A stretch of DNA of 46,785 bases from a phage. Location: assembly GCA_029337695.3 (NCBI GenBank), contig GCA_029337695.3_4851.1, one strand, 5' to 3'. A program made the translations under genes and the position numbers. Of the stretch, positions 2,813 to 31,425 are shown piece after piece. Position 1 is the first letter of the stretch. The number at the start of each line of letters is the position of its first letter. The notes under the pieces are model-generated. The model made no database searches and had not been told where the DNA came from. It saw only the letters and a list, made by a program, of their open reading frames with translations.

Positions 2813-3529
2813 ATGGCTATTTGTGCAAATGATAAAGGCGTTCTGGTTGGTCGAATGACCAGACTGTTCCTTGCTGAAGGGTGCGGTGACGCAGTTCCGG
2901 ATGCAGAAGATTGGAAGTATTTAGGCTCAACCACCAGTAAAGGTGTTGACTACTCGCCACAGACCACTACGTCGGAAGCGGATACCGCTGGCGGTTTTGT
3001 TTCCACTCTCGTTACCAGTTCTGACATGACCATCAGTGCAGAGGTAGAAATCCGCAAGAACGACCCAAGCGATGAGTTTGGCTTCCACCGACTGGTTGAG
3101 ATTTACGCCACTGAACTGAAAGCTCGTCGCCAGCCTTCCTTGTGGGTGCGTCAGGTGACTGGTGCAACTATCGTTACCGCGTACTGCAACATTACCAGCA
3201 TCAGTTACGAAGGTGGCACCAACGACATCGTAACAGGCAGCCTTGAATTCAAGGTTTACGATTCTGACAGTGTCACCGTTGAAAGCCTTGAACCTCTGAA
3301 GTTCACTACAGACTTGCCATCAACTGACACGGCTGGCAGCCCGTTAACCGTTGCTGTTGAGGGTGGCGTCTCTCCTTACACCTACGTGTGGCGCAAAGAT
3401 GGCGTGGTTGTTGGTAGTGAATCTGGCGCAACGCTGACAAGTCCTACTGCTGGTGTATATACCGTTACGGTCACGGATTCGTCCACTGACCCGGAAATTA
3501 TTATCAGCACGGCGTGCACCGTATCCTGA
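2813..3529 (+). CDS. major tail protein with C-terminal Ig-like domain
   Basis: 238-aa ORF upstream of chaperone and tape measure; Thr/Ser/Val-rich C-terminus typical of Ig-like decoration domains; own promoter and terminator. Confidence 0.7.
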   Translation: MAICANDKGVLVGRMTRLFLAEGCGDAVPDAEDWKYLGSTTSKGVDYSPQTTTSEADTAGGFVSTLVTSSDMTISAEVEIRKNDPSDEFGFHRLVEIYATELKARRQPSLWVRQVTGATIVTAYCNITSISYEGGTNDIVTGSLEFKVYDSDSVTVESLEPLKFTTDLPSTDTAGSPLTVAVEGGVSPYTYVWRKDGVVVGSESGATLTSPTAGVYTVTVTDSSTDPEIIISTACTVS

Positions 3530-3535
3530 TAAAGA

Positions 3536-3563
3536 AAAAGCCCCGAAAGGGGCTTTGTTTTAT
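3536..3563. terminator. bidirectional rho-independent terminator
   Basis: AGCCCC-gaaa-GGGGCT hairpin flanked by A-run and T-run, between convergent genes. Confidence 0.75.
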
Positions 3564-3760
3564 TCTTGCGGTGGTTCTGGTGATTTAGCCCAATGGGTGG
3601 CTGGAATTCCGTGACAGCGGTCTAATTCACTAACAAATATCTTGCTGCCAATGTTGTCGACAACTTTACATACCGCAGTTCTAACGGCACCGCGAAATGA
3701 TGTAAGAACCATCTCTCCATCTTCAGGCATCTTCTCACTACACTTAATCCACTGGCTCAT
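3560..3760 (-). CDS. DUF551 domain protein
   Basis: MSQWIKCSEKMPEDGE...ATHWAKSPEPP matches the DUF551 pattern (WI...LPE...THW.PLPEPP). Confidence 0.65.
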   Translation of the reverse strand: MSQWIKCSEKMPEDGEMVLTSFRGAVRTAVCKVVDNIGSKIFVSELDRCHGIPATHWAKSPEPPQE

Positions 3761-3900
3761 ATCACCTTATCCTCATCAAAAATCACACCAATCACACGAA
3801 GCAAGTCTTTCGCCATGCGCTCAGCTTCTTCATATTCATAACCTGCATCGACATACAAGTCAGTGTAGGAAATCAGGTCTGCTTTTGTTTGCTCGTTCAT
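3757..3900 (-). CDS. small hypothetical protein (47 aa)
   Basis: MNEQTKADLISYTDLYVDAGYEYEEAERMAKDLLRVIGVIFDEDKVI; ATGA overlaps with both neighbours indicate translational coupling. Confidence 0.4.
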   Translation of the reverse strand: MNEQTKADLISYTDLYVDAGYEYEEAERMAKDLLRVIGVIFDEDKVI

Positions 3901-4091
3901 TTCTTGTCGCCACTTTTAACCAATGCCCAAACAAGTGCTGCAACCCACCCAATAAAGCTCCATCCGACAAGAATATTCAATACACAGATTGCGGTCGTAT
4001 TTGTGTGCTTTCTTTGCAATGCCACAAATGACGGGAGAAGATAAACAAATACAACCAATCCAGCAAAAAGCAACAAAATAACAACATCCAT
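3897..4091 (-). CDS. superinfection immunity (Imm-like) small membrane protein
   Basis: 64 aa with two hydrophobic segments; LLPSFVALQRKHTNTTAICVLNILVGWSFIGWVAALVWAL resembles the Imm superinfection-immunity family signature. Confidence 0.6.
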   Translation of the reverse strand: MDVVILLLFAGLVVFVYLLPSFVALQRKHTNTTAICVLNILVGWSFIGWVAALVWALVKSGDKK

Positions 4092-4149
4092 AATTCACCT
4101 CAGTCATATCTCGTTTAGATGACTTGAATCTACATCACCACCTCGCAGG

Positions 4150-4175
4150 TGTCAACACCACTGAGATGATATAAT
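4150..4175 (+). promoter_or_regulatory. putative promoter with extended -10 (TGATATAAT)
   Basis: TGTCAACACC...TGATATAAT block identical to 2757-2776, preceded by AATCTACATCACC at 4128-4140. Confidence 0.5.
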
Positions 4176-4195
4176 CAACATCAGTCAAATTCAGG

Positions 4196-4912
4196 ATGCA
4201 AAACATGAGCAATCGCACGCCACTAACAGAAATCGGGGAGATGCGCATCTCACTGGCTGATAAGAGTTTTTTCTTTAAGCCATCATTCCGTGCCATGAAT
4301 GAAATCGGCACACCAAAAGAAATTGTCGAGGTGTACGCCAGACTCAATGGCATTGATTATGTTGCGCCATTGCAGCACGTCGAATACCTGCCATTTGGCG
4401 CGCAGATGCAGGTCATGAAGACCATCAGTAAACCTGTGTATGGTCGCCATGTGCTGAGCGCGGCCTATATTGTCATGCAGTCATGCTGTGAAGATGATAT
4501 TTCTGTGCTGATTGGTGGGTGGAAGCCAACACCGCGCGGCGTGCGATACGTACCGGGCATCATGCCAGTGAGCGACATTATTATTATTGCGCGCAATCTG
4601 ATGCAGCACGGCATCATCGGCAAGTCACCACTCAAAGTGCCTGAGCGCCTGGAAGAGCAAGGCAAGAAAACCACAAACGAGTTTCATGCGTCGCAATACA
4701 TCATCTCAGCACGCACGCATTTCGACATGACGCGAGATGAGGCCGAAAACCTGTCCATGACAGAGTTTCAGATGATGATTAAGAATAAATATCCAGAGCC
4801 GAAAGGGTTAACGAAAGAAGAGCGCGCGGCAGAGTACGATCAGGCTAAAGCAGACCGTGAGCGCATGAAGGCACTGGCTGAACGCAAAGCGAAAAAAGCG
4901 AGGAATACATAA
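4196..4912 (+). CDS. putative tail assembly chaperone
   Basis: 238-aa ORF between major tail protein and tape measure; basic C-terminus; no separate frameshift ORF apparent. Confidence 0.45.
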   Translation: MQNMSNRTPLTEIGEMRISLADKSFFFKPSFRAMNEIGTPKEIVEVYARLNGIDYVAPLQHVEYLPFGAQMQVMKTISKPVYGRHVLSAAYIVMQSCCEDDISVLIGGWKPTPRGVRYVPGIMPVSDIIIIARNLMQHGIIGKSPLKVPERLEEQGKKTTNEFHASQYIISARTHFDMTRDEAENLSMTEFQMMIKNKYPEPKGLTKEERAAEYDQAKADRERMKALAERKAKKARNT

Positions 4913-7289
4913 TGGCTGAAGAAGTCGGCGGAATTGTCTATGAAGTCGGGATGGATGTTAAAGGCCTGAAAGCTGGCGCGACAACAGCCAATAAGACTTT
5001 AGATGACCTTGAATCATCAACCAACAAAACCACAAGCGCCCTTGGCAAGCTGGATAAAAACGCCAGAAATGCTGGCAGCGGAATGAAAAATGCTGGCGGC
5101 GCAGCTTCAGGGCTAAAAACCAGCCTGTCGATGCTGGCTGGCGCAATATCCGTGTCACTGATTATCGAATGGGGAAAGCGATTCCTTGAGGTTGCAGATA
5201 ACATGACGCAGCTTCAGGCAAGGATTGCTCGCCTGTCAACTGACGCAAAAACCGCGAACGAAACATTCAGCTCACTGGCAAATATCGCCTCAACCACTGG
5301 CGCAAGTCTCAGCGACACCACGAAGCTGTGGGAAACATTGACGTCATCACTGAAAGAGGCTGGCGCGACAAATGCGCAGATTCTTAACCTTACAGATACC
5401 CTGCAAAAAATAGGTCGAATTGGCGGGTCATCAACCGAAGAAATGGCGAATGCATTACGTCAGTTCGGTCAGTCAATAGCATCTGGCACAATCCGCGCAG
5501 AAGAGTTCAACTCCATCCTTGAGCAGATGCCTGAACTTGCACGCCAGATAGCCGCTGGGCTTGGCATTTCAATGGGTGAACTTCGGGCCAGAATGCTTGA
5601 CGGAAAATTGACGGCAGAAGATGCACTAAATGCCATTCAGGACAGGACAAGCGTCGTTAATGCTGAGTTCGCAAAGCTACCGCGCTCTATATCTCAGGCG
5701 ACTGGCAGTCTTGAAACATCATTTGCAAAAATGATAGCAAGCATAAACGAAGCAACTGGAGCCAGTTCTACCTTTGTTTCAGTTATTGACTCTATTACCT
5801 CAGCAATCAACAGGCTAACTGGTCAGACCATAGGTGCGGCAGAGGTTATTTCTGATTTGACGTCAACTGCCGAAATGTTCAGTCGCAGAGCGAGAACTTG
5901 GTCATGGGTCGGCATTGACGGATGGGCGGCACAAAATCAGGCAATAGCGGCGGTAGCAAATCAGGCTGCAACTTTGGTATCAGACATGGATGCTGTCACC
6001 AAATCGACAGGGGAGGCAGCAAAGGCGCAAGCGCACTTGACAGTGCCAAAAGCAGCAGAGAAAGAGAAAAAGAAAAAAGCAACAGGCAAAAGCGCCGAAG
6101 AACGACAGGCTGAGTCAGTTGCTGAAAAGCTGGAGAAATTACGCCAGCAAACCATGCTCAATGCCACATCTACCAGCGAACTATCCCGCGAGCAAGCAAT
6201 TCTCAACGCGCAGCAATCGCTTGGCAAAGCTGCCACTCAGGAGCAAATAAAACTTGCTGGCGAGTACGCTGCGAAGATTTGGGACCAGAAGAATGCACTG
6301 AAGGAGCAGGCAGAAGCGGAGAAGGAAAAGCAGCGCATAGAAAAATCATATCAGGGGTTGCGCGCTATTGCGTCACCAACGACTGGCATTGACAGTGAAT
6401 ACCAGCAACGCATGGCTGACCTTGATGCCTACGCCGCAGCATATCCGCAGAAAATTACGGAGATTGAGCAGACTCGCGCAGCAATTGAAGCACAATACCG
6501 CCAGCAGCGAATGGACGCCATGTGGGCTGAGTGGCAGCAACAAAGCCTAGGTGCGCAACTGTTCGGTACCGCTCTTGATTCAGCAATGAGTACGGCATCA
6601 AACAGCATCACCGGATTGCTGACAGGCACAATGAGCGTTCAGGATGCCATGCGCAGTCTCGGCTCTACGGTGCTGAACTCTCTGGTAAACAGTTTCGTCG
6701 AGATGGGCGTGCAGTGGGTAAAATCTGCCGTTATGGGACAGACTGCACAGGTTGCGGCTACGGCAACCACAACGGCTGCGCAAACGGCAGGGCTGGCAAC
6801 AACAACAGCAGCATCGACGGCGGCAGCAGCCACCACCACGGCGGCATGGACTCCAGCGGCAATCGTGGCATCAATCGGTTCATTCGGTGGTGCGGCCGCA
6901 ATTGGTGTAGGCGCTGTTCTCGGGGCGCTGGCAATGGGTGTCGCTGGAAAGCGAAAAAATGGCGGCTCAGTTAGTGCCGGAAGTATGTACGAAGTTGGCG
7001 AGGGAAACGCACCAGAAATATTCCAGGCCAGCACAGGCAGGCAATATATGATACCTGGCAATTCAGGTAAGGTTATCAGCAACAAAGACATTACCGGAAG
7101 TGGCAGTGGCTTGATTATAAATAATAATGTTTATAATAGTTCAAGCGGAGCAACAGCAACTACCAGCGCCAGAGATAATGGTGACGGCAGCGTGACAATT
7201 GAGACGATTGTGAGTGATATTTCGGAAAATGGCCCAATAGGGCAAGCCATTTCAAGAAACTACAATACCAACAGGAGAGCAACCGAATA

Positions 7290-25200: not shown

Positions 25201-25647
25201 ATGGCTAATCCAAACCCTGTCATGAAATTTTCCTCTGAATACCAGCCTGCTGGCAGAGGATTAAGCTACAGAAACAGGCTTATTGAAGCATTAAAGCGAT
25301 GCGGGCTTGGCGAGGAGGAATTCCTTGATGCATTCATCAGGACGTCAATCAGGATGACGGAGGAAAACCCGACTCAGGGCGTGCAAATGCTGAAGGAAAT
25401 ATTCCTGCGTATCAGCCCGGTACAAAAGAGTATGGCACCTCCGGTTAATTTTAAATACCGCAAAGATGCCACGCCAGTTGAGCAGATAGAGGACGTCATT
25501 CAATCTGTTTCCAGTGGGGAACTCCCAATTGATGTGGCGTCGCAGGTTGTGTCTATGATTAAGGTTGGTCTTGACGTGAAAGAATTAACCGAACTCGCCG
25601 CGCGCCTTGAGCGACTGGAGAAATTGCTGGAGCAGCAGAGTGCGTGA
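25201..25647 (+). CDS. terS: putative terminase small subunit
   Basis: 148-aa ORF directly upstream of the large terminase, with C-terminal coiled-coil; assignment by position. Confidence 0.45.
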   Translation: MANPNPVMKFSSEYQPAGRGLSYRNRLIEALKRCGLGEEEFLDAFIRTSIRMTEENPTQGVQMLKEIFLRISPVQKSMAPPVNFKYRKDATPVEQIEDVIQSVSSGELPIDVASQVVSMIKVGLDVKELTELAARLERLEKLLEQQSA

Positions 25648-25776: not shown

Positions 25777-27201
25777 ATGGCTCGTAAACGCCTCTCCGCA
25801 CTGGCAATCGAAAAACTGGAAGCGCAGATTGATGACGCGATGACTGATGTTGCAGAGTCCGCCATCTTCGGCATCTGCGACATGCAGAAGAACGTCATTA
25901 AGCGGTTAAGGATGACAGCTACTGGCGTTGATGATGTGACTAATGCAACCACTCATGCCGATCACCTGATTCCCGCAAAACTTGAACGCCTGCTTTATCC
26001 GAAGCGTTTTAAGTTTGTCTACGGTGGTCGCGGGTCAGGGAAAACGAGAACTATTATCACTATCCTTACTGAAAGGGCAAGATTTCGACCTGACCGCTTC
26101 GCCTGCTTTCGTGAGATTCAGCAATCCATTGAGGATTCAAGCTATCAGGAGCTGGTGGATGAGATAGCCCGCAAGGGAGAGTCGGCAGAGTTTCGCGTTG
26201 TCAACAACGAGATAACACACAAGAAGACCAAAGCGAAGTTTCGCTTCAAAGGGCTGTATCGCAATCAGACAACAGTTAAGGGTTTTGCTGGCATTACCGT
26301 CGGTTGGGTAGAGGAAGCAGAGAACGTCAGCCAGACAAGCTGGGATATTCTTGTACCTACCATCCGCGCCGCTAATTCCGAGCTGTGGTGCTCATTCAAC
26401 CCCAACAAGGAAACAGACCCGACATGGAAGAACTGGATTGCTCCATATCACTCACGGATGGTTGATGGCATATTCGAAAATGATGAAATTCTGATTATCG
26501 AATGTAACTATTCCGACAATCCGTGGTTCTGGGATACGCCGCTGCCATCAGCCATGGAGCAAATGAAGCGAACTGATTACGACCGTTATCGCTGGATTTG
26601 GATGGGAGCATTCAACAAGCGCAGCGACGAGCAGGTTTTTGGTGGCAAGTGGCGCATTGATAACTTCGAGGTCAAACCTGAATGGCACGGGCCATACTTC
26701 GGGATGGACTTCGGGTTTTCCACCGATCCTACCGCAATGGTTGAAGTGTACATCGAAGAGTTACCAGGTGGACGGCGTAACATTTATATTAATCGCGAGT
26801 ACGGCAAAGTTGGCCTTGAAATTACCGATACGCCAGCTGCGATGGAGCAATCATTTCCGATGGCTAAGCGCGCACGATGGTATGCCGACTGTGCGCGACC
26901 AGAAACCATCAGCCACATCAAGCGTTCTGGATTCGATATTCACCCGTGCACAAAATGGCCCGGGAGTGTTGATGATGGCGTAACGTGGCTGCGCGGTTGT
27001 GACAGCATCATCATTCACGAGAGATGCAAGGAAATGCAGAATGAGGCGGCGATGTACAGCTATAAGGTTGATAAGCTGACCGGGAATGTACTGACTGATA
27101 TTGTTGATGCATTTAACCACTTCTGGGATGCGGTTCGTTACGCCCTCAATGACCACATCGTTCAGCGCGGAAGCGGAATGCTAATCCGCCGCAGGCGATA
27201 A
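25777..27201 (+). CDS. terL: terminase large subunit
   Basis: Walker A YGGRGSGKTRT, Walker B-like VGWVEEAE, C-terminal nuclease-like region. Confidence 0.85.
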   Translation: MARKRLSALAIEKLEAQIDDAMTDVAESAIFGICDMQKNVIKRLRMTATGVDDVTNATTHADHLIPAKLERLLYPKRFKFVYGGRGSGKTRTIITILTERARFRPDRFACFREIQQSIEDSSYQELVDEIARKGESAEFRVVNNEITHKKTKAKFRFKGLYRNQTTVKGFAGITVGWVEEAENVSQTSWDILVPTIRAANSELWCSFNPNKETDPTWKNWIAPYHSRMVDGIFENDEILIIECNYSDNPWFWDTPLPSAMEQMKRTDYDRYRWIWMGAFNKRSDEQVFGGKWRIDNFEVKPEWHGPYFGMDFGFSTDPTAMVEVYIEELPGGRRNIYINREYGKVGLEITDTPAAMEQSFPMAKRARWYADCARPETISHIKRSGFDIHPCTKWPGSVDDGVTWLRGCDSIIIHERCKEMQNEAAMYSYKVDKLTGNVLTDIVDAFNHFWDAVRYALNDHIVQRGSGMLIRRRR

Positions 27202-27217
27202 ATCTTCATCACCACAC

Positions 27218-27257
27218 TTGACCAATCTACACCGAGCGCATAGTATAATCTACATCA
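27218..27257 (+). promoter_or_regulatory. putative promoter (TTGACC ... TATAAT) with two direct AATCTACA motif copies
   Basis: TTGACC 27218-27223, AATCTACACC 27224-27233, TATAAT 27244-27249, AATCTACATCA 27247-27257. Confidence 0.5.
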
Positions 27258-27278
27258 GGCTTACCGGAGATATCACTA

Positions 27279-27485
27279 TGCGCAGCTATGCAGGATTCAC
27301 ACAGGAGGAAAAAGAACAGGTTTATTCACTGGCGCGGGCTGGCGTGCCTGACGAGGTGATTTGCCGTCGGTATGACATCGACGAGGATTTTCTGCTGCGC
27401 GTTCTGGATGATGTTTTCGTCAACCTGCAAGAAAAGCGAGGGTATAAGGGTATCTGCTGCAAGAATGATTTTTTGAGAGGGTGAT
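27279..27485 (+). CDS. hypothetical protein
   Basis: 68-aa ORF (MRSYAGFTQEEKEQ...) downstream of the promoter. Confidence 0.4.
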
Positions 27486-27676
27486 TATGAGAGGGTTTGC
27501 AAGTGATTTTCTGTTTATTGGTATTAAGTACACCATTGCACTGGCGATTGCTTTCCCACTTATCTGGTTGATTAGATGGTAGGCACCAAGTATTGGTGAC
27601 ATTCTAAACTGGCAGGTTTTCAGGCTTTTTATCGGATTGTTGGTTATTTCAGCCATTGCCGCTTGGTGGATTAATC

Positions 27677-28084
27677 ATGTTCAGAAATAAATTAAAGAAA
27701 ATAATCCGCGACGCTGCGGATAAGAAATACACCAAAAAGATTGATATATCATTCATTGATGGTGCTGGCCTGTACAACCATGCCTGTCATCTGAACGCAG
27801 TGAACAAGTCTCGCGATGGTAGCTCGTGCGCAGTGGTTGAGGTTGTGGTGATTGATGATAAGTCAGTGACTGCACATTACATCAATATGCAGTCAGATGG
27901 TGCTTATGTTGACTACACACTCGGCTGGCACTGGTCTGGTGCTGATTACCGGTTTGTGCGATTTGTTCCGTTTACCGAGTGGCCTGATATCACAGGCTCG
28001 TTAAGCAGACTGAAGGCCGAACTGTGCAGGCCGGTGGCTAAATGGCAGAAGTTGTTGATGATAACTGATGGTGAACTTTGTTGA
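27677..28084 (+). CDS. hypothetical protein
   Basis: 135-aa ORF from in-frame ATG at 27677. Confidence 0.45.
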   Translation: MFRNKLKKIIRDAADKKYTKKIDISFIDGAGLYNHACHLNAVNKSRDGSSCAVVEVVVIDDKSVTAHYINMQSDGAYVDYTLGWHWSGADYRFVRFVPFTEWPDITGSLSRLKAELCRPVAKWQKLLMITDGELC

Positions 28085-28091
28085 GGTGGGT

Positions 28092-28287
28092 AATGATTAT
28101 TGAAGAAACAGAAAACGCATATGACATGCACGTAACTGAGCAAGAGCTTGAGGATGGAACTCTTGTTGTGGAGTTGTATCAAGAGAATGGCTCAGGCATT
28201 GAGCAATTTATTGGTATTGACAAGCAACAGGCTGCGCAGCTAATAGAAGTCCTGCAACGCTGGGTTAACGGTGAGGAGATTGAGTGA
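28092..28287 (+). CDS. hypothetical acidic protein
   Basis: 65 aa, highly acidic. Confidence 0.4.
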
Positions 28288-28517
28288 TGATGAATACCAA
28301 GCAAAGATACAGGATGGGGTATCTCGGCTGGCTGAAAGAGACTGTTGGTGATTTTCTTGATAAGAAGATGCTGGCAGACATGGTTTATGGCTTATTGTGC
28401 CTACTGCTGCTCATCTCTTTTCCTGTTTCAATGCCGATGATTGCTGCAATAAGAATGGTAGTAACCAAGCGAAATATGAGAAAACAGTATGGTCGCGATG
28501 AACTGATGGGAGATTGA
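28284..28517 (+). CDS. hypothetical membrane protein
   Basis: 77 aa with a central hydrophobic segment; ATGA-type overlap with the upstream gene. Confidence 0.4.
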   Translation: MMMNTKQRYRMGYLGWLKETVGDFLDKKMLADMVYGLLCLLLLISFPVSMPMIAAIRMVVTKRNMRKQYGRDELMGD

Positions 28518-28706
28518 GTGATGAGCGTTTATTTCATTCATGCTGAGGTGCTTGGTGGTGGTGAAGTTGCCGCAAAAATGTCTATGGTGATAGCTGCGTC
28601 AAACTCAGTTCATGCTTTCGAAGTGTTTATGGCGGACGAGAATGCCGCCAGATTCCAATCCCAAGGGTTCGATGTTGTTATTGATAAACTGGAAAAGGTG
28701 GAGTGA
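28518..28706 (+). CDS. hypothetical protein
   Basis: 62-aa ORF in a coupled series. Confidence 0.35.
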   Translation: MMSVYFIHAEVLGGGEVAAKMSMVIAASNSVHAFEVFMADENAARFQSQGFDVVIDKLEKVE

Positions 28707-28936
28707 TGGATAACTGCGAAACGCCGATTCAATACCTTGAAGAATTGTCTCTTTGCGATACTATGGCAAGGAAAATAATAACCTTGTTTAAGCAAGGAAT
28801 TGTCACTGAACAGGAAGCCATCTTGATTTACATGAAAGGGCAAAATGAAATTACAGAACATTACAAGGGTGAGCTATTATCTATCATGCAAAGACAAACG
28901 CAACCGATGATTGCAATGCCATCACGGAGAGAATAA
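28703..28936 (+). CDS. hypothetical protein
   Basis: 77-aa ORF, last of the series, followed by a terminator. Confidence 0.4.
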   Translation: MMDNCETPIQYLEELSLCDTMARKIITLFKQGIVTEQEAILIYMKGQNEITEHYKGELLSIMQRQTQPMIAMPSRRE

Positions 28937-28970
28937 GCCATCAACCATAGCCACTGCAAGCTCGTGTTAT

Positions 28971-29000
28971 AATCCCATCCAACGTGATGGGATTTTTTAT
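28971..29000 (+). terminator. rho-independent terminator
   Basis: AATCCCATC-caacgt-GATGGGATT followed by TTTTTAT. Confidence 0.75.
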
Positions 29001-29006
29001 TGGTGA

Positions 29007-30431
<1,425 letters not shown>

Positions 30432-30525: not shown

Positions 30526-31425
30526 ATGGCAAAAAGACTCACCACGGAAGAATTCATTTCTCGCGCCAGACAAAAACATGGCGACAAGTACATTTATCAT
30601 AAATGTGAATACGTCAACGCAAAAACAAAAATCGTCATAACATGCAAAGAGCATGGCGACTTCACGCAATCACCAAGCGACCACCTGCAAGGAAAGGGAT
30701 GTAAGAGGTGTGCAGATATCTCAGGGTGGGATAAGAGAAAGATAACAACCTCCGAATTTGTCTTGAAGGCAAACGCGATACACTCCAACAAGTACACATA
30801 TGAAAAGGCCAAGTATAAGCAAGGTCATTTAAAGGTGTGCATAACATGCAGAAGGCATGGTGATTTTTATCAATCACCAAGTAGTCATTTAAGGGGCTTT
30901 GGTTGTCCATCGTGCAAGTTTGAATTAAATGCAGAAAGATGCAGAATGACAAAATCAGAGTTCATATCAAGGTCAAAGGAACTGCACGGTGACTCATATG
31001 ACTACTCAATGGTGGAGTATAAAAACAATAACACCAAAGTTGCTATATTGTGCAAGGAGCACGGATTGTTCATGATGTCACCTGGCAATCATCTTGCTGG
31101 CAAGGGATGCAGTGGGTGTGCAAAGTACGGATTTGATTATAAAAGGGAGGGGTTTGTATATTTCCTTATGGGCGATGGTGTAATAAAAGTTGGCATAACA
31201 AATGACATAAGACAAAGAATTGCAAGATTATCAAGGAGGACACCTTTTGAATTTTCCTTGATTGCAAAAATAAAAACAACCGGGGAAGAAGCTGCGGCGA
31301 TTGAAAAGTATTATCATAACAAATATGAATCAGCCGGTCTTTATGGTTTTGATGGTGCAACAGAGTGGTTGAAATATTCGACAGAACTTATGAATGAGAT
31401 CATGAATGAAAATACTCCGGTTTAA
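30526..31425 (+). CDS. T5orf172 (GIY-YIG-like) domain endonuclease with three N-terminal zinc-ribbon repeats
   Basis: Three roughly 45-aa repeats of ...HG(D)...Y...C..HG.F.QSP..HL.G.GC..C, then a C-terminal GFVYFLMGDGVIKVGITNDIRQRIARL...GATEWLK T5orf172-type domain. Confidence 0.65.
   Translation: MAKRLTTEEFISRARQKHGDKYIYHKCEYVNAKTKIVITCKEHGDFTQSPSDHLQGKGCKRCADISGWDKRKITTSEFVLKANAIHSNKYTYEKAKYKQGHLKVCITCRRHGDFYQSPSSHLRGFGCPSCKFELNAERCRMTKSEFISRSKELHGDSYDYSMVEYKNNNTKVAILCKEHGLFMMSPGNHLAGKGCSGCAKYGFDYKREGFVYFLMGDGVIKVGITNDIRQRIARLSRRTPFEFSLIAKIKTTGEEAAAIEKYYHNKYESAGLYGFDGATEWLKYSTELMNEIMNENTPV

Follow-up and report, generated by a model that had tools for sequence, protein, structure and literature searches.

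A small-gene island between the terL and portal genes of a Skatevirus-type siphovirus: a probable insulated transcription unit with a core gene and dispensable cargo

In this work we analyzed the interval between the gene of the terminase large subunit (terL) and the portal gene in a phage DNA stretch of 46,785 nucleotides (nt) (contig GCA_029337695.3_4851.1 of the NCBI GenBank assembly GCA_029337695.3). The whole stretch, called the window below, represents an essentially complete genome of a small siphovirus. An earlier description made without database searches (the sequence-only reading) had placed here an island of seven small open reading frames (ORFs), and seven consecutive plus-strand ORFs, designated o1 to o7, were indeed found between terL and portal. 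We consider it probable that the region as a whole is an insulated transcription unit, consisting of a core module of the portal/head operon and an array of dispensable cargo genes, o2–o7. The core module would include a sigma-70 promoter, o1 and an extended -10 promoter (lacking a -35 box) directly before the portal gene, while the cargo would be lodged between o1 and the portal promoter and translated as a coupled chain. The island is a well-delimited example of an already known type of phage locus, the variable small-gene hotspot.

Distribution and variability of the island

The closest DNA matches of the window were Escherichia phages ECO111 5-P, Sa179lw, C1 and swi2, Shigella phage DS8, Salmonella phages LPSTLL, Segz_1 and BS5, and Bas77–81; in the second BASEL paper this cluster is grouped as Skatevirus and relatives. 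The terL-portal interval was compared in 13 GenBank relatives, one 47-kb metagenomic contig (L014) and the window, 15 genomes in total. Gene families were delineated with a chained ORF caller and all-against-all BLASTP; o3 was counted by tblastn (the chained caller misses it wherever o2 overlaps o3).

The island was found in all 14 Skatevirus-type relatives, with the same flanks (terL or o1 on the left, portal on the right) and with one to seven plus-strand genes, so that the usual adjacency of terL and portal, assumed earlier, does not hold for this lineage. At least 14 shared gene families and some singletons occur across the 15 genomes, in colinear order, and some relatives additionally carry one or two minus-strand genes directly 3' of terL. 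In LPSTLL and Segz_1, o1 is the sole plus-strand gene of the island, and a 50-amino acid (aa) minus-strand ORF directly follows terL. The lack of o2–o7 in these two phages and the inactivation of o2 in two phages indicate that the cargo is dispensable, whereas o1 is present in all 15 genomes. Thus, the island behaves as the hotspot of variable small genes that had been proposed, but its first gene does not share the accessory status: o1 appears to be a core gene linked to portal.

The cassettes o5 and o7 are rare. Among the 14 relatives, o5 was found in Sa179lw alone (86% identity). No tblastn match to o7 was obtained in 50,697 phage records; its relatives formed six near-identical clusters in a 5.8-billion-protein set, the best three being located on contigs of about 46–47 kb. 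In L014, o7 is again the last gene before portal, with other neighbours.

The terL products of the relatives are either close to that of the window (79–98% aa identity) or distant from it (about 60%), and their portal proteins also form two groups (97–98% and 63–70%). All four combinations of terL group and portal group occur around the island, and therefore the island represents a joint at which the packaging and head modules recombine. It should be mentioned that megablast revealed no matches to the island in 5,426 complete E. coli genomes, which at this level of similarity rules out a prophage or chromosomal origin.

Putative promoters and terminator at the island boundaries

The promoter proposed earlier for the island has the structure TTGACC-17-TAGTAT, and a consensus scan showed that equally good matches are not above chance in number. 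The promoter and the TCTACATCA motif that follows it are, however, invariant in 12 of the 13 relatives, irrespective of whether they are preceded by terL or by a divergent gene, and this conservation supports the presence of an own promoter. The same layout, TTGACG-17-TAGAAT-CTACATCA, was revealed in the distant locus L015, where o1 is 41% identical. An inverted repeat, GCGCATAGT...ACTATGCGC, overlaps this promoter; its fold has a predicted energy of -16.9 kcal/mol, and 2 of 300 shuffled sequences were equally stable. Hairpins or palindromes of differing sequence lie over the promoter -10 or spacer in six of seven o1 lineages (the window and five of the six others), and extend to the o1 start codon or to just before it (z from -2.7 to -5.4). 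We suggest that this element insulates the island on its 5' side by pairing the -10 region with the Shine-Dalgarno (SD) sequence and ATG of o1: RNA reading through from terL would hide the o1 start, while RNA initiated at the promoter would leave it free.

At the right boundary, the 45 nt preceding the portal ATG are conserved in 13 of 13 aligned relatives, including a Klebsiella phage. They contain the TGnTATAAT element TGTTATAAT and a hairpin followed by a T-run, so that the sequence-only reading also appears correct in giving the island its own terminator. TGnTATAAT or TGGTATACT was found in the distant loci L016, L017 and L019 as well. Upstream of the portal extended -10 no conservation was detected, as expected because a promoter of this type needs no -35 element. 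RNA starting at position 28981, about 7 nt past the -10 and within the hairpin loop, is predicted to be unstructured (z +1.0). Island transcripts would terminate at the hairpin (3' insulation), and portal transcripts would begin inside it and so escape termination.

Sites of the TGNTATAAT type occur five times in the window (at 2768, 4167, 28965, 30429 and 39570) versus 1.8 expected, a number reached by 2 of 100 shuffles. Those before the major tail gene and the gene at 4196 share GTCAACACC-N2-TGATATAAT, with AATCTACA about 36 nt upstream, and sites of this type possibly represent a class of late promoters. The TCTACATCA motif, in its turn, is one of 12 genome copies of TCTACRTCA, the core of AATCTACRTCA (0.58 expected; none of 100 shuffles reached 12). 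The copies lie in gaps between, or just upstream of, larger ORFs (those nearby include tail, helicase/primase, endolysin, MarR-like regulator and lipoprotein genes) and are often paired, in direct or inverted orientation, 20–30 nt apart. This motif is probably either a promoter-proximal element or the operator at which a phage regulator acts.

Antitermination at 28971–29000 was unsupported, since none of the three minus-strand ORFs tested in the window downstream of the MuF-like head gene was identified as an N-type antiterminator gene. In L014, a Phage_N_antitermin (PF26859) protein is encoded just downstream of MuF (5794–6093, minus strand). A 12-nt repeat, TATTGGTGACAT (27591 and 28998), is not conserved in the relatives and was taken as a chance occurrence.

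All features discussed are collected in Table 1.

Table 1. Genes and sequence elements of the island and its surroundings in the window, with the number of genomes carrying each gene family
Feature	Position	Strand	Genomes (of 15)	Remarks
Gene in the position of terS	25201–25647			Upstream of terL; Sa179lw counterpart annotated as terminase small subunit
terL	25777–27201	+		Left conserved flank; Pfam Terminase_3 1.6e-37, Terminase_3C 3.6e-10; also PHROGs
Island promoter TTGACC-17-TAGTAT	27218–27246	+		9/12 match to consensus; conserved
Inverted repeat GCGCATAGT...ACTATGCGC	27236–27283	+		Covers the -10 box and the o1 SD/ATG
TCTACATCA motif	27249–27257	+		About the transcription start (about +1)
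o1	27278–27484	+	15	68 aa; three-helix protein, sigma-region-4-like fold predicted by model; near-invariant core gene
o2	27487–27690	+	about 7	Amber-truncated copy of a 67-aa two-transmembrane (two-TM) gene; TAG at 27580–27582; 31-aa ORF at 27487–27582
o3	27677–28084	+	9 (tblastn)	135 aa; predicted minimal papain/transglutaminase-like Cys-His protein
o4	28093–28287	+	10	64 aa; acidic, pI 4.05, 16 acidic and 2 basic residues; phrog_13627
16-nt repeat GGAGATTGAGTGATGA, left copy	28275–28290	+		100% identity to the right copy
o5	28287–28517	+	2	76 aa; basic membrane protein, pI 9.7, hydropathy 2.35 at residues 37–55; rare cassette
16-nt repeat GGAGATTGAGTGATGA, right copy	28509–28524	+		Spacing of 234 nt from the left copy, equal to one o5 cassette
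o6	28521–28706	+	12	61 aa; acidic; phrog_26739
o7	28706–28936	+	2	76 aa; rare cassette gene, last before portal
Extended -10 promoter of portal, TGTTATAAT	28965–28973	+		TGnTATAAT; overlaps the 5' arm of the terminator hairpin
Intrinsic terminator	28971–29000	+		Hairpin 28971–28994 and T-run; -16 kcal/mol, z -2.4; conserved
portal	29010–30431	+		Right conserved flank; Pfam Phage_portal_3 2e-21, phrog_146
TCTACRTCA copies	4129, 16839, 19218, 23372(-), 23389(-), 27249			(-), minus strand
TCTACRTCA copies, continued	33937(-), 33966, 37005, 37030(-), 45827, 45858			(-), minus strand

The start of the first ORF, o1, had been given one base off in the earlier description. The coding status of o1, o3 and o4 is backed by an excess of synonymous/third-position differences from the relatives; the support from substitutions is weaker for o5 and o7, and SD sequences and stop/start coupling provide further support for the island ORFs. 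No Rfam families or tRNA genes were found inside the island, and an explanation of the region as non-coding RNA was rejected for lack of an Rfam family there. Pfam, NCBIfam and PADLOC scans of o1–o7 gave noise only (PADLOC without a match at E <= 1), in line with the earlier remark that none of the ORFs is recognisable; four of the seven (o1, o3, o4 and o6) were assigned to PHROGs of unknown function.

Two features outside the island should also be mentioned. The sole RNA gene of the window is a tRNA-Met (CAT) gene at 2199–2275 on the minus strand, upstream of the major tail protein gene. The other feature, at 30526–31425, is a gene inserted between portal and the MuF-like head gene, two genes that overlap directly in most relatives; its product is a T5orf172/MUG113 (GIY-YIG-like) endonuclease of 299 aa containing treble-clef zinc fingers, and a related endonuclease gene was found nearby in BS5 (41%) and STGO-35-1 (36%) only.

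The o1 gene and its association with portal

The o1 product is 97–100% identical in 12 of the 13 fetched relatives, though identity falls to 60% for terL and to 68% for portal; in Klebsiella phage KP591P1 it is 55% identical. The ratio of codon differences (11–15 synonymous versus 1–2 nonsynonymous) indicates that o1 is under strong purifying selection. Only 16 representatives of this tiny family were found in a set of 1.84 billion proteins. In three distant lineages (portal 40–45% and o1 35–41% identical), an o1 homologue lies directly upstream of portal-MuF (the L019 contig ends within portal), and the distant homologues are preceded by a TTGACA-type promoter and followed by a TGATATAAT or TGGTATACT element. 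The 24-kb metagenomic contig L016 (1606–2524 and 4988–7554) combines lambdoid nin genes (NinX, NinD and NinH) and MT-A70 methylase fragments with o1-portal-MuF, nin genes being among those located upstream of o1; no terL match was detected there in the fetched 5 kb upstream of o1. By its occurrence and conservation, o1 is a core gene of the portal module and not an accessory one. The structural model of o1 predicts a tri-helical helix-turn-helix (HTH) fold resembling region 4 of sigma factors, and the most likely function of o1 is a transcription-related regulation of the late (portal) operon, for which it might bind either DNA or RNA polymerase.

The location of the island between terL and portal, the strict adjacency of o1 and portal even in distant phages and the near-invariance of o1, which suggests a conserved partner, would also fit a role in packaging or head assembly. 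According to this alternative, the island, or at least o1, provides a portal/terminase-binding factor or a DNA-recognition helper similar to the N-terminal HTH of small terminases. We regard it as unlikely: a separate gene occupies the terS position upstream of terL, the promoter of o1 is an early-type one of its own, the terminator lies between o1 and portal, and the identity of portal ranges from 68% to 98% with o1 remaining at 97–100%, unlike what co-evolution of the two would produce. Moreover, no orthologue has been annotated or characterised as structural. Characterised structural or packaging proteins among the orthologues, which the sequence-only reading had named as evidence against itself, were looked for and not found: the PHROG families of the island genes are all of 'unknown function', and the GenBank labels in the relatives are 'hypothetical protein' or evident mis-transfers.

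Public annotations contain errors: the 64-aa o4 orthologue of Sa179lw (4387–4581) bears the name 'replicase polyprotein 1ab', and the name 'head protein' is given to the minus-strand ORF that follows terL.

Gene junctions and cassette exchange

In 12 genomes, nearly all internal starts follow the pattern GAGGTG(A/G)GTG-ATG or GGTGGAGTG-ATG, the junction being formed by an SD sequence and a TGA that overlaps or abuts the ATG. The sequence GAGTGATG is present in the window in three copies, all at consecutive island junctions. The two copies of the 16-nt repeat GGAGATTGAGTGATGA flank o5; the frame in which o4 reads the repeat differs from that of o5. Chimeric and decayed genes were also revealed: ECO111 contains a chimeric ORF with only the first few o3 codons left, and o2 has been independently inactivated in two phages, both being signs of cassette turnover; BS5 retains a 13-aa o3 remnant.

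Thus, it can be hypothesized that an SD-stop-ATG junction (GAGGTGAGTGATG or GGTGGAGTGATG) closes each cargo gene, and that the cassettes are exchanged, inserted and lost by recombination at these conserved sites, as well as at the anchors formed by the near-identical o1 and portal leader. Reassortment of terL and portal alleles would be made possible by these anchors, too. Two other sources of mobility were rejected. An array of the integron type is inconsistent with the lack of an integrase or recombinase in or beside the island and with the structure of the junctions, which are SD-stop-start sequences of 12–16 nt and not attC-like imperfect palindromes; mobility driven by a homing endonuclease was rejected, as there is no nuclease inside the island.

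The decayed alleles bring up the alternative that the cargo ORFs are selfish or decaying passengers without benefit and that the island merely tolerates insertions. The nonsense and frameshift alleles of o2, the o3 remnant in BS5 and the viability of isolates without plus-strand cargo agree with it, as does the weak purifying selection on o5 and o7 (synonymous to nonsynonymous codon differences of 10:11 and 7:5, respectively). However, purifying selection acts on the widespread genes o3, o4 and o6 (37 synonymous versus 11 nonsynonymous differences for o3), homologues of o3 persist with invariant residues in unrelated phage families, and the island contains no endonuclease or transposase to drive selfish spread; we therefore find this explanation quite improbable.

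Putative functions of the cargo genes

The 31-aa hydrophobic peptide listed by the sequence-only reading (27487–27582) is not a gene of its own. In Bas77, C1, IME207 and BS5, the full-length o2 product has 67 aa and two hydrophobic segments. Codon 32 of the window copy is TAG, in place of GAG or GAA elsewhere, and the remaining 35 codons are intact in frame up to a stop that overlaps the o3 start; the Sa179lw copy carries a 1-nt deletion. Thus, o2 does not encode a micro-peptide; it is either an amber allele or an accessory gene that was inactivated recently.

The o3 model places Cys37 at the start of a helix (37–46) and His67 in a strand (64–71), so that a catalytic-type arrangement is predicted, with Cys at a helix N-terminus, His in the following strand and an acidic third residue. 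Conserved positions are Cys37, His67, Asn34, Asn40, Glu55 (invariant) and D or E at 79, and they hold down to 29–34% identity. At this level, o3 homologues were found in two N4-like podoviruses, Erwinia phage S6 (gp040) and Escherichia phage Pollock (gp35), and in a siphovirus of Mesyanzhinovviridae, Bordetella phage CN2 (gp49) (loci L021, L022 and L023, respectively), where they also sit among small genes; this distribution indicates that the o3 family moves between unrelated phage families. The closest known counterparts of the predicted fold would be papain/transglutaminase-like Cys-His-Asp enzymes (PeiW, staphopain, arylamine N-acetyltransferase, C39, SseI and NlpC/P60). A BFVD fold search with o3 yielded uncharacterised phage proteins only, a scan of all o3 family members for known families found none, and PDB sequence searches with the o3 profile and with o4 gave nothing meaningful. 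The model makes o3 a candidate small Cys-His enzyme (protease, amidase or transferase).

The acidic protein and the membrane protein noted earlier correspond to o4 (64 aa, pI 4.05) and to o5, which has one strong hydrophobic segment. In the family alignment, o4 is composed of a hypervariable N-terminal half and a conserved C-terminal helix, IDKxQAAQLIEVLQRWVNGEEIE, while o6 has conserved termini and a variable middle. We suggest that o4 and o6 are acidic binders with hypervariable segments, and that o2 (inactivated in the window) and o5 are small membrane proteins.

Several points weigh against the proposed organization. Among the 16 members of the o1 family, Pfam revealed no HTH family (noise only at E <= 10), and NCBIfam gave no match to o1 of the window. 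The o1 protein is acidic (pI 5.0), and its third helix, EDFLLRVLDDVFV, is acidic/hydrophobic and lacks the basic and polar residues usual for a recognition helix; therefore DNA binding by o1 is doubtful. The inverted repeat at o1 is absent in KP591P1, and the 5' palindrome could be a DNA/autoregulatory operator instead of an RNA hairpin. Both promoters, the terminator and the logic of insulation are deduced from sequence and conservation. The junctions may be conserved for translational coupling only and not as substrates of recombination. Finally, the host- or competitor-directed accessory functions of the cargo are putative.

Possible role of the island in anti-defence

The sequence-only reading considered small acidic and membrane proteins in such hotspots to be frequent anti-defence or host-takeover factors. 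In this case the whole island would be an anti-defence/host-takeover hotspot, whose small acidic and membrane proteins inhibit immunity (restriction-modification (RM), CRISPR, CBASS, toxin-antitoxin or abortive infection systems) or exclude other phages. We treat this explanation of the whole island as tentative and would sooner expect it to be wrong. The island does behave as a hotspot of small genes with fast turnover, and the hypervariable segments of o4 and o6 beside conserved ones are expected of binders engaged in an arms race. Genes with suggestive similarities were also found in the relatives. In Sa179lw (L001, 4815–5126) and BS5 (L011, 4705–5022), the slot of o5/o6 is occupied by a lone XRE/HigA-type HTH gene (HTH_3, 8e-8), possibly an antitoxin decoy against toxin-antitoxin defence. 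In ECO111 5-P (L008), a 1.4-kb insertion in the adjacent minus-strand slot directly after terL (2926–4337) contains, along with a 270-aa ORF without a family match, a transporter-like gene of the Vut_1/YhhQ family (Pfam, 6e-9); conceivably, a 7-deazaguanine DNA-modification module is involved.

At the same time, no ORF of the island matches a known anti-defence or defence family, so that only the hotspot part of the earlier claim could be confirmed; o1 is a portal-linked core gene, and o2 is a pseudogene in the window. According to the second BASEL paper, Bas77–81 show a marked sensitivity to RM systems and to Old. The islands of Bas77 and Bas81 carry o1, o3, o4-like and o6-like genes, and therefore this sensitivity argues against a strong anti-RM role of the shared genes.

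Evidence of another kind is provided by the study of Silas et al. (2023; bioRxiv 10.1101/2023.04.06.535777), who defined accessory regions with an independent algorithm and screened 200 accessory genes. The locus was picked there as an accessory region, which agrees with an anti-defence role, and the library includes two island genes of Escherichia phage C1: AYR02300.1, a full-length o2 orthologue, and AYR02303.1, of the o6 family (UDP0173). However, these two homologues were not reported as hits: orf15 and orf173 of the screen are not named in the text or in the other available supplements, although they might have a weak phenotype. For individual cargo genes an anti-defence role is possible.

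Significance and comparison with known systems

The data leave current concepts unchanged, and their value lies in specific testable leads, a late-regulator role for o1 and a Cys-His enzyme role for o3. If its predicted role is correct, o1 may be the hitherto missing late regulator of Skatevirus-type phages, which now serve as BASEL model phages, and o3 would represent a candidate enzyme family spread across unrelated phage families. The junction repeats and chimeric ORFs would be a direct record of cassette swapping. Variable small-gene hotspots are a source of many counter-defence and host-takeover genes, and one with clear boundaries is a practical candidate source; the cargo slot may also be a tolerated site for engineering.

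A more far-reaching combination can be imagined, in which o1 is an unrecognised, near-invariant free-standing late-promoter switch resembling sigma region 4, the operon is a dedicated landing pad for cassettes and o3 founds a new family of minimal Cys-His effector enzymes; we think it has a low chance of being true in full. If it were, o1 would activate -35-less extended -10 late promoters (portal, tail) throughout a group of enterobacterial siphoviruses, either binding DNA or appropriating sigma/beta-flap, the cassettes would be shuffled through the SD-stop-start junctions, and the o3 family would be shared with N4-like and YuA-like phages. With sigma-70 region 4 and LuxR-type HTH proteins o1 shares the modelled tri-helical fold; it differs from them in being free-standing and acidic, in its acidic/hydrophobic third helix and in having no sequence-family match.

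Morons of lambdoid and other tailed phages, in the concept of Hendrix and Juhala, are extra transcription units with their own promoter and terminator inserted between genes of a late operon. The island resembles them in its putative promoter and terminator between two late-operon genes. It differs in being a multi-gene array and not a single gene, in containing a core gene and in belonging to a virulent phage, which implies no lysogenic expression. Its composition is also not distinct in the manner of a moron: the G+C content, 0.42–0.44 versus about 0.46, is only slightly below that of the surroundings, the full ranges being 0.42–0.48 inside the island and about 0.45–0.49 nearby.

In T4-type phages, hyperplastic regions and PeSL 'mobile regulatory cassettes' were reportedly described by Arbiol and co-workers in 2010. 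As in that system, short repeats at gene boundaries coincide in the island with modular shuffling of small ORFs among related phages. Unlike PeSLs, however, the repeat is an SD-stop-start junction of about 12–16 nt and not a promoter with a stem-loop, and its role in recombination is inferred.

The start of the T4 lysozyme gene e is said (McPheeters and colleagues, 1986) to be hidden in a hairpin on long transcripts, with a promoter inside the hairpin. The island may use a similar arrangement twice, as a promoter appears to lie in one arm of a hairpin both at the o1 start (27236–27283) and, with respect to termination, at 28965–28994, so that only RNA initiated at the promoter would be devoid of this arm; the difference is that the 5' palindrome could equally be a protein operator.

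The closest counterpart is provided by the accessory regions of Silas et al. (10.1101/2023.04.06.535777), which, like the island, are variable clusters of small genes of unknown function located between core genes of related enterobacteriophages. For the screened homologues of island genes, no counter-defence or cell-death phenotype is reported in the available parts of that source. The island differs from these regions in that its first gene, o1, is a core gene, and its putatively insulated promoter/terminator layout and its junction repeats lie outside that concept.

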